A stretch of 34,427 nucleotides of DNA from a virus: UHGV virus genome UHGV-0118447, one strand, 5' to 3'. The notes under the pieces are model-generated. The model had not been told where the DNA came from and did no database searches. It worked only from the letters and a program-made list of their open reading frames with translations. This document shows positions 1,435 to 8,420 of the stretch, piece by piece; positions within the stretch are counted from its first letter, which is position 1; each line of letters starts with the position of its first letter. A program made the translations under genes and the position numbers.

Positions 1435-1533
1435 TTGGAATCTCCATTTATTGAGTTGGTATTATTGCGGTAGGTCTGGATATCTTGAGAAATGAACAGG
1501 CCTCACCGAGTGTGAGGCGGTGTTATTTCATGG

Positions 1534-1878
1534 TTAGTCCTTGCGTAGCTCGCTAATTCTTCTGTAAGTCTCTGGTGCTTTGTTTCCGTGTATCTTCATT
1601 TCAGACTTCAACAGAGCAACGAGGGAATCCCATTCGTTGAGGATGCCTTTGAATGCCGGAACGCGCTTTGCAACCTTGTTGAATGAATCTCTGATTTCTG
1701 GAATCTGCTCAACAAGTGCAACGCATCGCCGAAAGTCTGCTGCGTCATGGGGAGCACCGAAGTAATGACCATAGATATTCTTTTTCAGTCCACATGCGAT
1801 TGAGGCAAGAGTTGCGCTACTGATACCGACATCGCTAGTCGATTGCCATTTCAAAACCTTCATAGCCAAATCTGACAT
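1534..1878 (-). CDS. Hypothetical protein (114 aa)
   Basis: ATG-initiated ORF in the int-proximal accessory region; no family recognised. Confidence 0.55.
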   Translation of the reverse strand: MSDLAMKVLKWQSTSDVGISSATLASIACGLKKNIYGHYFGAPHDAADFRRCVALVEQIPEIRDSFNKVAKRVPAFKGILNEWDSLVALLKSEMKIHGNKAPETYRRISELRKD

Positions 1879-1978
1879 TTCTTGTCTCCATAAAACAAAA
1901 CCCGCCGTAGCGAGTTCAGATAAAAGAAATCCCCGCGAGTGCGAGGATTGTTATTCACCTTTGACGGCAAGTTGCAGG

Positions 1979-2833
1979 TTAGCCACGGTTAACCTCCAGT
2001 TGTGGTGCTGCCTCAAGAGCAGCCCTGTAACCAGCAGCATGACCGCGAAAGTTAGCAATCTCTGATAGCCACGCTTTAATCATGGCCTGAGTTGGCTCCT
2101 TCGGCACCATAACCCAACCATCCGGAGTTACCGGAGAGTTGCCAGCCTGAACAGTAGGCATATCCGGACCTTTGCGAATCGCCCTGGCAAGATCGATTGG
2201 GTCGTCGTATAACCAGTCACCTGTTTGCGGATGATTGGCCTCTGCCAGTTGCGCCGCCCATTCAAGGCCGTCTTTGTGACCTTGCAGATAGTCCAACGGC
2301 AACTCATCACGATTACTTACGGGTTCGATTTGTTCGGAATTACCGGACAACTGCATGGTACCTTCATTGGTGAGGGTACCATCTGCACCCTGAAGCATGG
2401 CTGCCCGGCACTCATCAACAGCCTGACACAGCTTGGCGCGGTGATGTCCAGCCATAGTCCCTTTGTTCCAGTCATGCCCCATTGTCATGCCGTAAGCATG
2501 GTGGAGAAGGCGCTTGAAACACTCAGGCACAGCTACCGGCGCTGGAGGGGCGGTGTAGAGCGGCATTACCTCAATATTGAAGATATCCCCCTCGCTTGGA
2601 CACGCCTCTGCGCTACCGTAAACCCAAGGGTGAACGACTCCGTTACGCTTGTTGATTAATCTGTGCGCCCACGCCACAGGCTCCGCTTCGAGCGATGCCA
2701 GCGCGATACGCGCATTATTAATCAGGAGGCTATCAGCAGGAGATAAAACAACATGAGCGTTACCCTCCGCATCAATTTCAGAATTCGTAATTTTTCTGAA
2801 CAGCTTTGCCAGTTCTTTGGTAATAGTGCTCAT
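1979..2833 (-). CDS. Hypothetical protein, Ea22-like C-terminal region (284 aa)
   Basis: ATG start with GAGGA SD inside the upstream gene; C-terminal PDGWVMVPKEPT...AAGYRAALEAAP segment resembles the conserved tail of lambdoid Ea22-like proteins (recollection). Confidence 0.6.
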   Translation of the reverse strand: MSTITKELAKLFRKITNSEIDAEGNAHVVLSPADSLLINNARIALASLEAEPVAWAHRLINKRNGVVHPWVYGSAEACPSEGDIFNIEVMPLYTAPPAPVAVPECFKRLLHHAYGMTMGHDWNKGTMAGHHRAKLCQAVDECRAAMLQGADGTLTNEGTMQLSGNSEQIEPVSNRDELPLDYLQGHKDGLEWAAQLAEANHPQTGDWLYDDPIDLARAIRKGPDMPTVQAGNSPVTPDGWVMVPKEPTQAMIKAWLSEIANFRGHAAGYRAALEAAPQLEVNRG

Positions 2834-2836
2834 GGG

Positions 2837-3268
2837 TTAGTCCTCACCTTTCTGTTGCACTACCGGAACCGATAAATCGACGCACCAGGAGATAACGCCG
2901 AATTGATCATCGTTCTGCGCTTCACCCCAAACGTAATATTTTGATCCTGGCCGACCCATTGCCGGGTCAAATACTTCTATGCCGCGTTCTGCCGTTAACG
3001 ACATCAGAATCTGATGCAGGCCGCCTTTGATGTTCAGTGACGGAACGGTCAGGAAGTAAATAAACCCGTAAAGCAATTCGGCCTTGCGCTGGCTTCCGTA
3101 AAAATACGGGATTTTGTAATAATCCAGCGCGTCGTCGAGCCAGTCTGTTTTGTCGTGGAATTTCTGATGCCAGCGTTCCACTACCTCATCGACAGGTTGA
3201 CCGGCAACCATTGCAACGCAGGTAGCCATGCAGGTGTTAAATGTTGGCTGCATTTGATGTTGAAGCAT
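2837..3268 (-). CDS. Putative papain-fold cysteine peptidase-like protein (143 aa)
   Basis: Q-x5-C (QPTFNTC) near the N-terminus, then His (GGLHQIL) and Asp 17 residues later (VFDPA), the spacing of a papain-like triad; start ATG overlaps upstream stop (TGATG). Confidence 0.5.
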   Translation of the reverse strand: MLQHQMQPTFNTCMATCVAMVAGQPVDEVVERWHQKFHDKTDWLDDALDYYKIPYFYGSQRKAELLYGFIYFLTVPSLNIKGGLHQILMSLTAERGIEVFDPAMGRPGSKYYVWGEAQNDDQFGVISWCVDLSVPVVQQKGED

Positions 3269-3879
3269 CACTCCCCCTTACCGATGCCGGCGGCGCGGTC
3301 TATGCGTTCGATTTCAGCCAGAATTAAAGCCCCTGCTTTTACCAGGTTGCGACGGCGGGCATTTGGCTTCCACCATGAAGCATCCCAAGGCCACCCCCAC
3401 GGCTTGCCACCATTGCGGTTAACAGTTTCTGTTTCGTTTATGTAACAAACCGCCGCCATTGCCAGTTCCCCGTTGCAGTGTTCGTCATCATGCTCTGGCA
3501 TCCACCCCTCAACCGATTGTTGCCGCTGGCGCTCTGCTATCACATCCAGAATTGCAGGATTGAATGCACGCGCTTCCAGTTCAGCAATCCGCTCCTCATA
3601 CCGAGCGCCAACGGAAACGGCTTTATGGAAGGCTTCGCACCATTTTGACGATTGCGCCTGCATCTTCTCCAGCTCATCCAGCAGCGCCAAGACGGTAGCC
3701 GGATTGGCTGCGGCGATAAATGCAGCATCACGCGCTTCGTTTTCACTGAATACCATGGCTATTTGCTCATGGTTCACGCCGTCAGTGGAGTAAATCTCAT
3801 CGTCGAACTCAACAGCCCACCGGCCTTTCGTCGCCTTCTCCGCCGCTTCACGCAGAGCCTGGTAATTAATCTCGCTCAC
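3268..3879 (-). CDS. Ead/Ea22-like protein with C-terminal putative dATP/dGTP pyrophosphohydrolase-like domain
   Basis: N-terminal [16 protein letters not shown] motif typical of Ead/Ea22-like proteins; probable GTG start at 3879 preceded by AGGAGG (the ORF track starts at 3900). Confidence 0.6.
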
Positions 3880-4043
3880 TGGTTGCCTCCTTTGCGCCAC
3901 ATCGCATTCAGATATTTGTTGTCATTAACAGAACCGAAACTCTTTCTCTTAAGCAATTCCTCTCTCGATGGCATTGGCTTTACGCGTTGGCGAATAATCA
4001 TTTCTGCCGGAAGAATGCCGGGATTGTATGCAAGTCCTCTCAT
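3876..4043 (-). CDS. Small hypothetical protein (55 aa), translationally coupled to the downstream gene
   Basis: ATG at 4043 with AGAGGA SD; stop TGA overlaps the GTG start of the next gene (GTGA); below the ORF-track size cutoff. Confidence 0.4.
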
Positions 4044-4059
4044 GGTAAATTCCTCTTTG

Positions 4060-4374
4060 TTAATTTATTCGTATGCCTGCTCTTTCTTCATCGAGTTTTT
4101 TTAGCTTGTATCGCATAGCTCTTACTGAATAAATTGAGCGGCAGGTTGCAATTGCTATTTCTTCTGCGGAGAACTTACCGAAAAGTGATACTTCGGCTCT
4201 TGTCCATCGTCTTCCACGAAGTCGGCTAACAATGTCAGCTCCAATCCTTGTTGCTTTCGCCATTACTGCTTTTTCAGTCCTTTCCAGTTTTTCAGCGATA
4301 ACTTCAACTGGCATTGTCGCCGCTACTTCGCGCAAGAAATCGACTTCCCATTTCTCCCATGGAGTCTTTTTCAT
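4060..4374 (-). CDS. Hypothetical protein with internally duplicated helical motif (104 aa)
   Basis: Two similar W-x-E-V...E-I-A segments suggest a tandem HTH/Myb-like fold; ATG start. Confidence 0.5.
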
Positions 4375-4385
4375 AGGCGATACCG

Positions 4386-4868
4386 TTATTTGATAAGAAG
4401 TGAAGGTTTCCCAACTTTGAGTTGAGCACCGGGAATATTTATTCCTGCTTTTAGTTGGTGTTTGATTGCCAGTTTGTCGGCTTTAATTGTCGTTTCAAAC
4501 TCAACGTATTCAGGAGGAAGGGCGCTTGAGTCGATGATTTCTACAATTTCTGACGGTTTGCGGATTGTTACCTGGTGAATACCTGCTCGAATATTTTTCT
4601 TGCCAACCATTTCAAGCGATGACGCTATATATGATTTGATGCTGTCAATCTTATTTTGGATTACTGCGGCTCGCTCATTCAGTGACTTTGCCTCTTCCTT
4701 GAGGCGTTCAGCATAACCAGATTCATTTTTAATGACGGAAAGAAGTTGCTCTATTTTATCGGTAAATTCTCCTTCCATGCCTTCTATTGTGTCAGCAATC
4801 ATCTCTGGTTCTAAATCTGAATCCATCAATTTTGCGTATTCATTGGCAATTTCATACAGTTTGCTCAC
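4386..4868 (-). CDS. Gp157-family protein (RecT-associated)
   Basis: Coiled-coil protein directly downstream of RecT; probable GTG start at 4868 with GGAGG SD (track start 4874 is TTG). Confidence 0.6.
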   Translation of the reverse strand: MSKLYEIANEYAKLMDSDLEPEMIADTIEGMEGEFTDKIEQLLSVIKNESGYAERLKEEAKSLNERAAVIQNKIDSIKSYIASSLEMVGKKNIRAGIHQVTIRKPSEIVEIIDSSALPPEYVEFETTIKADKLAIKHQLKAGINIPGAQLKVGKPSLLIK

Positions 4869-5763
4869 TGGCAACCTCCAGTTTCGCTTTGCATTCTATG
4901 TAAATGGCTTGTACGTTCTGCTGCAATTTCATTCCAGACGTCAGGCGATATGCTTCTGCAAAATATCGCTTCAAATCATCCATGTTTTCTGCCTGAGCCA
5001 TTTCATCGCAAAGAAGTTGTACTTTATCCATTATTTCCTGCTGGCGTTTCCGTTCATCTTCGCGGATATCTTCCTCTGATTTGTGCGGCATAACTGGTTC
5101 AGTCCACACACCTTCTTCTTCGTTTAGTACGTGAATAGCACTATCAAGACGTGATGCCTTAGGCCAATACTTGCTTGCACGCTTTACGACCGTCTTTCGC
5201 GCCATCTCATTCCAGTGATTTACCCATGGTCCTTTATCGCTGAATGCCGCCTTGCTTGTTTTCCTTACAGCCTCAATTTCAGCCAGACTCATCTCTTCCG
5301 TTAGATAATCACCTGCTGGCGTCTTAACTGTGCAGTAAACGCCAACGATATCACCACGATCACCGAAGGCGTTGTATTTATGGGTTGGTGCTTTATCAAG
5401 CCCGTTTGACTCATAGGTATCGTTAGCATGAACAAGTTTTGCCTGACCCCATGAGATAACACCAGACTCCATTGCAATATGGAGCAATCCCATATAACTG
5501 ATATCAAGGCACACCATGCCGTCGCGCGGAACCAGATAAGCCAGTTTGCTGGCCGGGTTTAAGGTGATACCGATCGCCGCAACATTGATGATGGCGTTCT
5601 GTGCGCTGGTTGGATTTGCCAGTGCTGTTTTAGCCAGGTAATCATTTTTCTGGAAATACTGAATTGCAAACTGGCTTTCCTTAGCCCATGTCACCGTCTG
5701 TTCAGTCAATGCTCCGCAGAATAACTGCTCTTGCTGTTTAACGAATTCAACGATATTGCTCAT
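4852..5763 (-). CDS. recT: RecT-family single-strand annealing recombinase
   Basis: 303 aa; GPWVNHWNEMARKTVVKRASKYWP region matches the conserved RecT core. Confidence 0.85.
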   Translation of the reverse strand: MSNIVEFVKQQEQLFCGALTEQTVTWAKESQFAIQYFQKNDYLAKTALANPTSAQNAIINVAAIGITLNPASKLAYLVPRDGMVCLDISYMGLLHIAMESGVISWGQAKLVHANDTYESNGLDKAPTHKYNAFGDRGDIVGVYCTVKTPAGDYLTEEMSLAEIEAVRKTSKAAFSDKGPWVNHWNEMARKTVVKRASKYWPKASRLDSAIHVLNEEEGVWTEPVMPHKSEEDIREDERKRQQEIMDKVQLLCDEMAQAENMDDLKRYFAEAYRLTSGMKLQQNVQAIYIECKAKLEVASEQTV

Positions 5764-6156: not shown

Positions 6157-6317
6157 TGCTTAACGACCTTAATCAGTTGAGTTACCTCAATGATGTCCTC
6201 GCATAAATCCGAGTACTGAAATGGGCCGCAGTTGTGAGAGTTAGTGCGTCTGGCGAAAGCCATTCTTCTAAGCTCTTTCATGGCTTCTTCCAGTTCCTCG
6301 TAAGTTGGTTTTTTCAT
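6153..6317 (-). CDS. Small hypothetical protein (54 aa) at the kil position
   Basis: ATG overlaps the cIII-like stop (ATGA); lies between cIII and the recombination genes. Confidence 0.4.
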   Translation of the reverse strand: MKKPTYEELEEAMKELRRMAFARRTNSHNCGPFQYSDLCEDIIEVTQLIKVVKQ

Positions 6318-6484
6318 GGCTGTACCTTTTGATTCAGAAACTCAACAAGACGATCCAGCAAGCTCTTAACGCGAGGTTGTTTAAAGTCTGCTCCGGTTAA
6401 AATATTTTTTCGTGAATGCTGTACCGATAAAATCGGGTTGAAAGGGCGAACCGATGCCGCCCCTGCAATAGCGAACTGTTGCAT
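6314..6484 (-). CDS. cIII: CIII-like protein (56 aa)
   Basis: MQQFAIAG...SLLDRLVEFLNQ resembles lambda CIII (MQYAIAG...RLIDILNQ); AAGGAG SD; the longer ORF-track N-terminus overlaps a terminator and is rejected. Confidence 0.55.
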   Translation of the reverse strand: MQQFAIAGAASVRPFNPILSVQHSRKNILTGADFKQPRVKSLLDRLVEFLNQKVQP

Positions 6485-6548
6485 AGGATGCTCCTTCTGT
6501 TTGATTGCATAACGAAAACGCCTCAAGTGAAGCGTTATTGGTATGCAT

Positions 6549-6575
6549 ATAAAAAAGCCCTCACACTGGAGGGCG
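6549..6575 (-). terminator. Intrinsic terminator (tL-like) upstream of cIII
   Basis: Minus-strand GCCCTC-CAGTGT-GAGGGC hairpin followed by TTTTTT. Confidence 0.6.
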
Positions 6576-6678
6576 AAGAAGATTTCCAATAATCAGAACA
6601 AGTCGGCTCCTGTTTAGTTACGAGCGACATTGCTCCGTGTATTCACTCGTTGGAATGAATACACAGTGCTTATTCATA

Positions 6679-7915: not shown

Positions 7916-8248
7916 TCAATCGTAATAAGCTGGAATTGATTTTCCGCGTTGCTTCTGGCGGCCTGAACAGGTCACACCCATTTCACTACGTGGCTTGCTG
8001 TACCATGTGCGCTGATTCTTGCGCTCAATACGTTGCAGGTTGCTTTCAATCTGTTCGTGGTATTCAGCCAGCACTGTAAGGTCTATCGGATTCAGTGCGC
8101 TTTCTACTCGTGATTTCGGTTTGCGATTCAGCGAGAGAATAGGGCGGTTAACTGGTTTTGCGCTTACCCCAACCAACAGGGGATTTGCTGCTTTCCATTG
8201 AGCCTGTTTCTCTGCGCGACGTTCGCGGCGGCGTGTTTGTGCATCCAT
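7916..8248 (-). CDS. N: Antitermination protein N (lambda-type)
   Basis: MDAQTRRRERRAEKQAQWKAAN arginine-rich motif and lambda N-like remainder; start at the internal ATG of the track ORF. Confidence 0.9.
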   Translation of the reverse strand: MDAQTRRRERRAEKQAQWKAANPLLVGVSAKPVNRPILSLNRKPKSRVESALNPIDLTVLAEYHEQIESNLQRIERKNQRTWYSKPRSEMGVTCSGRQKQRGKSIPAYYD

Positions 8249-8420
8249 CTGGATTCTCCTGTCAGTTAGCTTTGGTGGTGTGGTAGGTGGGAGACCCATT
8301 TCGACCTGCTTCGGCCGACTTCAATTCGGCAATAGTTCCGCAGGCCTCGCCGCTTTACGTGCGACATATTCCCATCCATGAACCCTTCACCACACCCCAA
8401 AGCCTTCTGCTTTGAATGCT

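Follow-up and report, generated by a model that had tools for sequence, protein, structure and literature searches.

In virus genome UHGV-0118447, the 34,427-nucleotide window analysed here, positions 1979-4043 hold four consecutive minus-strand genes, A to D, of which gene C (2837-3268, minus strand, 143 amino acids from the ATG at 3268) encodes a predicted C39-like (clan CA, papain-fold) cysteine peptidase homologue. An earlier note on this DNA had described the product as a papain-fold Cys-His-Asp protein and had placed it in a translationally coupled four-gene operon. The first of these claims is well supported by structural modelling and can be sharpened to 'C39-like'; comparison with related loci leads away from the second. 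On balance it appears reasonably probable that gene C is a cytoplasmic, early thiol peptidase with a host or phage target that acts alone within a mosaic early-left transcript.

Fold and catalytic residues of gene C

Direct searches of Pfam, NCBIfam, PADLOC and PDB sequences with gene C returned nothing useful, and catalytic residues and fold were read instead from an alignment of 71 diverse relatives (24-88% identity). Gln7, Cys13, Ser77, His85, Asp101 and Pro102 are invariant in all 71. The Q-x5-C spacing given in the earlier note corresponds to Q7-x5-C13, while its H-x17-D spacing has to be corrected to H85-x15-D101. A putative Cys/His/Asp triad and an oxyanion Gln are thereby present in the canonical order and spacing, as judged from the aligned sequences.

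AlphaFold2 (AF2) run with the 71-sequence alignment gave a model with a predicted local distance difference test score (pLDDT) of 95.1 and a predicted template modelling score (pTM) of 0.89; with a shallow alignment, of 19 close homologues, the pLDDT was 56 and the model was set aside. In the retained model a helix begins with Cys13 and a beta-strand with His85, and Asp101 comes after the strand that follows. The modelled architecture is the papain-like alpha+beta fold of the C39 peptidase domain, which is its closest known fold, although identity to the matched structures is 13-17%. Among structural matches, the C39 domains are followed by staphopain, AvrPphB, deubiquitinase-type enzymes of the Josephin/UfSP kind and papain-family proteases; Foldseek agrees, its best match being PCAT1 (E 2.5e-3). 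Structure prediction and profile comparison with peptidase clans, both proposed in the earlier note as checks on its suggestion, thus end at a papain fold and at C39, a clan that the note had itself named.

Profile evidence points the same way at lower scores. The Pfam model Peptidase_C39 (PF03412) gave sub-threshold matches in 24 of the 71 relatives (best E 7.4e-4, 18.7 bits against a 22-bit cut-off), and a few other relatives matched C58, DUF3335 or C39_2. A PDB profile search built from the 71 sequences produced chance-level matches only, save for a weak match to PfhB2 (C58) over the His-Asp segment. When the gene C family was aligned directly with the C39 domain of CvaB by hhalign, the probability was 89.9% (E 1.7e-6), and Cys13, His85 and Asp101 fell opposite CvaB Cys32, His105 and Asp121, the catalytic residues of CvaB. 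The two also have in common a C-x3-C-[LV]-A-M motif and a Gln six residues ahead of the Cys. The CvaB N-terminal domain used for this alignment agrees at 100% identity with cvaB as annotated on plasmids of E. coli.

The known peptidases of the C39 family (CvaB, ComA, PCAT1, LahT; PF03412) are domains of PCAT/AMS ATP-binding cassette (ABC) exporters that process double-glycine bacteriocins. Gene C differs from them in several respects: phages encode it in their early operons, it does not reach the Pfam gathering score, and its product is a stand-alone, cytoplasmic protein of 143 residues with the full predicted Gln/Cys/His/Asp catalytic set. Cys13 lies so near the N-terminus that a signal peptide has no room. 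Neither hallmark of the C39 systems, an ABC exporter or a double-glycine leader substrate, accompanies it; no ABC transporter is fused to gene C, seen in the early-left region of the window, or seen adjoining its relatives in the loci examined. Stand-alone C39-like proteins (Peptidase_C39_2, DUF3335, and PDB 3erv from Bacillus anthracis) and the C58 effector proteases of the YopT/AvrPphB/PfhB2 type have no significant sequence match to gene C. They come from bacteria, in many cases as secreted effectors, whereas the gene C family is viral and cytoplasmic.

That family is large. PHROG 4049, which carries no functional annotation, matches gene C end to end (E 6.9e-52), and the C39-like assignment made here adds a fold and predicted catalytic residues to it; neither Pfam nor NCBIfam has a model for the family. 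A word-indexed search found 27 close gene C clusters, exclusively from Enterobacterales, and an exhaustive profile search raised the number to 712 clusters at 50% identity (E up to 1e-3), which with few exceptions are stand-alone proteins of 135-160 residues. The longer members contain no informative additional domains. Homologues with 26-49% identity occur in 187 sequenced phage genomes, no copy at 60% identity or above was present in the sequenced phages of the collection, and the exact 143-residue sequence is found in 2533 blocks of the assembly index. Given this absence of a close phage copy alongside so many index blocks, the allele in the window is essentially a prophage allele.

Members of the family lie in the early regions of both temperate and virulent phages, with neighbours that vary. 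In Kuttervirus phage Maynard (L005, 2986-3435) the gene stands between the annotated genes for the large and medium subunits of topoisomerase II, a gap of +1 separating it from the upstream gene and a 4-nt overlap joining it to the downstream one, and this position is kept in the Kuttervirus loci examined (L055-L061); five Kuttervirus-size loci from IMG/VR have an open reading frame (ORF) of ∼637 residues upstream and one of ∼441 residues downstream of the peptidase homologue. In Certrevirus the homologue is found amid small early genes, in a Brenneria podophage it adjoins the DNA polymerase, and in a distant clade of temperate phages it is directly upstream of ninB. The family is also carried by Seuratvirus-like coliphages, T7-size Vibrio cholerae phages, Pseudomonas phages and Erwinia jumbo phages. 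One homologue, at 102376-102804 of Salmonella phage SeF6a (ON809764.1), was deposited as 'ABC-type bacteriocin transporter peptidase domain', so the likeness to C39 had been picked up earlier by an annotation pipeline, though it is undiscussed in the literature found. Structural matches in BFVD are uncharacterised phage proteins together with one 'Peptidase C39 domain-containing protein' from a Bacillus phage.

Gene packing and a mosaic cassette

Gene C is flanked upstream by gene A (3876-4043, minus strand), which encodes a small 55-residue protein of the DUF2737 family, and by gene B (3268-3879, minus strand), which encodes 203 residues from the GTG at 3879; gene D (1979-2833, minus strand), encoding a multi-module protein of 284 residues, follows it. 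The earlier note had given these four genes and their junctions correctly. The TGA stop of A overlaps the GTG start of B (GTGA, 3879-3876), B and C overlap in TGATG (3270-3266), and a 3-nt gap (CCC, 2836-2834) separates C from D. The start of B at GTG 3879 is favoured over a longer ORF from GTG 3900 by a GGAGG 6 nt upstream, by homologues called at 203 residues, and by the resemblance of its first 16 residues to the N-terminus of lambda Ea22 (MSEIN). Genes B, C and D each have their own Shine-Dalgarno sequence inside the preceding gene.

It was from this packing that stoichiometric co-expression had been proposed, but the packing is generic to operons of this kind. Spacing is equally tight elsewhere in the same operon: there is a 4-nt overlap between RecT and the gene upstream of it and another overlap between Gp157 and RecT, and the gaps for orf156, orf47, orf104 and A are +3, +1, +11 and +16. 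Annotated lambdoid phages and prophages likewise contain chains of overlapping small genes throughout the int-proximal region. Among 80 IMG/VR loci encoding gene C relatives, the peptidase gene abuts or overlaps (≤5 nt) the upstream ORF in 71 of 79 cases and the downstream ORF in 60 of 77, irrespective of what the neighbours are. Since tight junctions accompany the gene in all contexts, they reflect a general trait of phage early operons and are no evidence for a four-gene machine. Through the TGATG overlap, translation of C is probably coupled to some degree to that of whichever gene precedes it.

What close E. coli relatives have in common with this region is a single block of 786 bp (2812-3597, minus strand), consisting of residues 95-203 of B, gene C and the first seven codons of D, which is 97-99% identical in other prophages (blastn against loci L006-L011). 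No phage or complete E. coli genome covered at least 80% of window positions 1500-4400. An identical gene C protein is encoded at six genomic places, one in the int-proximal ea (PL) region and five in the nin (PR) region, where the gene sits between the replication genes (O/P) and ninB/ninE. The cassette edge at 3597 coincides with the domain boundary inside B as seen in PHROG matches, and it adjoins a conserved linker common to proteins with differing N-termini; this linker may well be the recombination joint.

At greater distance the association between gene C and its neighbours dissolves. In 14 IMG/VR loci whose C is 99-100% identical, the C-terminal domain of B is directly upstream in ten, another gene is upstream in three, and in the last the domain is displaced. 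In 66 loci whose C is at most 94% identical, a homologue of the B C-terminal domain occurs within 4 kb in two only and a full D-like gene in none, and a 79%-identical copy in Raoultella has gene C alone in common with the window. A B homologue of 69% identity (1964 index blocks) is followed by genes other than C in the five places shown, while one of 81% identity does have C downstream. Gene C has thus been autonomous over evolutionary time, and the sole candidate for functional linkage is the pair formed by the B C-terminal domain and C, which is confined to one recent clade. The coupled operon of the earlier note is in these respects a part of a long N-antiterminated early-left transcript: relatives of C have unrelated neighbours, B occurs without C, and a co-occurrence test recovered no conserved A-B-C-D operon, only positions 2812-3597 being common to relatives. 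The A-D stretch was put together by mosaic recombination, with the N-terminal domain of B and the body of D exchanged freely.

Function and competing explanations

Under the interpretation favoured here, the product of gene C would be an active thiol peptidase or isopeptidase, produced early in infection, that cleaves a specific host or phage protein and does so by itself, outside any four-protein machine. The most plausible role is that of a host-takeover or counter-defence accessory, because sibling ea and nin regions hold Gad1, Lar-like, Abc2 and similar genes. A prophage-encoded defence system that protects the lysogen was considered as the principal explanation and rejected, because strictly virulent phages keep homologues and the PADLOC search was empty.

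Several points weigh against the favoured interpretation. The window protein reaches no curated family threshold, and the literature searched holds no biochemical or genetic data on any member of the gene C family. Deamidases, acyltransferases and transglutaminases are also found among papain-fold proteins. In E. coli prophages the B C-terminal domain and C are conserved together almost perfectly (10 of the 14 loci), which leaves room for a functional link between the two. Literature searches on phage C39-like or papain-like proteases, or on an anti-defence role for them, found nothing relevant, and a phage-encoded cysteine protease was not found in the text of the anti-defence and accessory-gene papers searched.

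The extent to which gene C depends on its neighbours separates two of the alternatives. A dedicated, translationally coupled A-B-C-D module with fixed stoichiometry, for example a thiol enzyme working with a nucleotide hydrolase, could appeal to junctions that are real and to the joint inheritance of the B C-terminal domain and C, which several prophages share at 97-99% identity and invariably with the TGATG overlap. However, such junctions are common here and in every context of the gene C family, A, the N-terminal domain of B and most of D are unlinked to C, and a close B homologue occurs without C; homologues of C at 94% identity or below, and all of those in virulent phages, have unrelated neighbours, and no hydrolase signature was found in B. 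The module is largely refuted by this comparative context and is regarded as very unlikely. A smaller unit, in which the B C-terminal domain carried on a tetramerising Ea22 coiled coil would serve as partner, regulator or substrate adaptor of the peptidase, is doubtful but retains some credence. The cassette is sharply bounded, by the border of the B domain on one side and a point just within D on the other, and is found in two different operons, the B domain directly precedes most of the near-identical C genes, two distant loci (L046 and L066) have a homologue of it within ∼1.3 kb, and Ea22 proteins are mosaic with swappable C-terminal domains (PMC10834534). Set against this are the three near-identical C genes with another upstream gene and the one with a displaced domain, the lack of a nearby B domain in most of the gene C family, and the far greater abundance of that domain (1318 clusters against 27 close C clusters), which is also found without C. 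The linkage may then be mere recent common descent of a recombination module.

The remaining alternatives concern chemistry and substrate. Gene C could be a non-proteolytic papain-fold enzyme (a glutamine deamidase, an acyl- or amidotransferase, or a transglutaminase-like protein) that modifies its target, but the best structural and profile matches are true C39 and C58 peptidases, and both the Gln-x5-Cys oxyanion arrangement and the C-x3-C-LAM motif agree with CvaB; this is considered unlikely. It would be very unlikely for gene C to fill the canonical C39 role by maturing a phage-encoded double-glycine leader peptide of bacteriocin-like or signalling type. The closest structures all process Gly-Gly leaders and gene A ends in ...KGGNQ; however, the gene C family has neither an ABC exporter nor a conserved adjoining small ORF in the loci examined, and the Gly-Gly of A lies two residues from its C-terminus, which is not leader-like, in a protein unlinked to C elsewhere. 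A more specific version of the counter-defence role, which must be called improbable at present, is that of an early-made, Gly-Gly-directed protease or deconjugase. Such an enzyme would strip ubiquitin-like or C-terminal-glycine conjugates, as in Bil-type conjugation or Cap2 priming of cyclic-oligonucleotide-based antiphage signalling systems (CBASS), or would cleave a defence protein. The AntiDefenseFinder paper never mentions protease, peptidase or cysteine (PMC11724313).

With gene C read as an early peptidase acting alone, a very common 'hypothetical protein' becomes a testable enzyme candidate with four named predicted catalytic residues. The family of 712 clusters includes virulent phages of the therapeutic type, and counter-defence and host-takeover genes are concentrated in the early accessory regions of phages. 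Finding a conserved, cytoplasmic thiol peptidase there would imply a specific, undescribed early proteolytic event. The gene C family is a widespread phage version of the C39-like peptidase fold that stands alone, and there is a small chance that it is a new class of anti-defence enzyme; if the deconjugase proposal were true, it would be a widespread protease-type anti-defence factor across lambdoid temperate phages and, among virulent ones, Kuttervirus, Seuratvirus-like and Vibrio phages. The cassette is in addition a clean case of lambdoid mosaicism, cut at a domain boundary in an Ea22-like gene and moving between PL and PR operons.

Neighbouring genes and the early-left operon

Gene B is a composite protein. 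Its N-terminal part (residues 1-94; 3598-3879, minus strand) comprises an Ead/Ea22 N-segment and a coiled-coil region, in agreement with the earlier note: residues 2-102 match PF13935 at 72.6 bits (cut-off 27), and identity to lambda Ea22 is 32% over residues 1-102 (BLASTP E 9e-9 over residues 1-103), with the first 16 residues near-identical. Gene B thus resembles the Ea22 proteins of lambda and of Shiga toxin (Stx) phages, encoded within the exo-xis region, with respect to its N-segment, coiled coil, genomic region and replaceable C-terminal domain, but the C-terminal domain itself is unrelated to that of lambda Ea22 and the alignment ends at about residue 103. Ea22 proteins have been described as mosaic, tetrameric and pro-lysogenic, with C-terminal domains unrelated to one another (PMC10834534, PMC7093339).

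The C-terminal domain of B (residues 95-203; 3268-3597, minus strand) is portable. PHROG matches to it are limited to residues 95-201, and it is found in some of its 1318 clusters as a free protein of ∼100 residues. Its invariant motifs are AER-RQ..EGW..E-D and WPW..WWK..AEIER-DR (alignment A3). Pfam gave no match in gene B beyond PF13935, and PDB sequences gave none to this domain at E up to 10. The earlier note had called it pyrophosphohydrolase-like, and no sequence relation to any pyrophosphohydrolase family could be found: none of 16 domain homologues matched a MazG-like or PF04447 family at E up to 1, and hhalign against a genuine PF04447-containing protein gave a probability of 0.9%. 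Invariant acidic residues do occur in alignment A3 (E12, E20, E25, D27, E85, E87 and D90), so that a pyrophosphohydrolase-type four-helix bundle with an acidic metal-binding cluster is conceivable. A genuine PF04447 dATP/dGTP pyrophosphohydrolase (DUF550/MazZ-type) domain does recur in sibling prophages, where it lies just 3' of the genes for the Ea22-like protein and the peptidase and forms either the tail of a 457-residue D-like protein or a separate gene of 149 residues (L016:4436-5809; L097-L106). This domain is absent from gene D of the window.

Gene D had been assigned an Ea22-like tail, a label that survives in part. The C-terminal tail matches the PHROG 60 module, which loosely agrees with that label, as well as the PHROG 12449 module, and the beginning of the PHROG 60 profile likewise matches gene B in its N-terminus of Ea22 type. 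Gene D has no similarity to lambda Ea22 itself, and was rejected as Ea22-like on that ground; it has no PDB match. Only its first seven codons fall within the cassette.

Gene A belongs to PF10930 (DUF2737; E 1.8e-29, 101.8 bits against a cut-off of 25) and also matches phrog_1117. Its C-terminus (3876-3890) reads ...WRKGGNQ and contains the sole GG motif adjoining the peptidase gene. The occurrence of this Gly-Gly beside a peptidase fold of the GG type is probably a coincidence, A not being linked to the peptidase elsewhere.

Gad1, Lar-like, anti-RecBCD Abc2 and HNH genes are found at equivalent positions of sibling prophages, in their ea and nin regions. In one of them (L009:501-1475) Gad1 (anti-Gabija, PF25705) lies in the same leftward operon as an identical peptidase gene in the ea region, and known counter-defence genes therefore occupy the neighbourhood of the peptidase gene.

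The first 8.3 kb of the window, in which genes are on the minus strand only, form the left arm of a lambda-like prophage. An early-left operon of ∼17 genes runs from a lambda-N-like gene (7916-8299) through RecT (4852-5763) to int (50-1210), with genes A to D as four consecutive members. Several small ORFs separate the N-like gene from RecT, Gp157 and a 104-residue regulator-like gene lie between RecT and gene A, and a 114-residue gene (1534-1878) and a xis-like helix-turn-helix gene (1087-1434) come between gene D and int. Neither Rfam nor tRNA scans of the whole window gave a match. A 361-nt stretch between orf156 and orf54 (6318-6678, minus strand) has no convincing gene; it contains a TTG-started ORF of 91 residues (6314-6589) and terminator-like hairpins at 6574-6557 and 6536-6517, and has no Rfam match.

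A consensus scan placed a sigma-70-like (PL-like) promoter match just 5' of the N-like gene. The N-like ORF contains MDAQTRRRERRAEKQAQWKAAN, which is essentially lambda N with its arginine-rich motif; the longest frame has 17 extra residues upstream of the Met there, and the true start is probably this internal ATG. The same kind of scan marked, by pattern match only, two tandem terminator-like hairpins (1949-1928 and 1917-1898, minus strand) directly 3' of gene D, and another terminator-like hairpin (1500-1518) follows the 114-residue gene. These hairpins suggest that transcription of xis and int needs antitermination, as in lambda.

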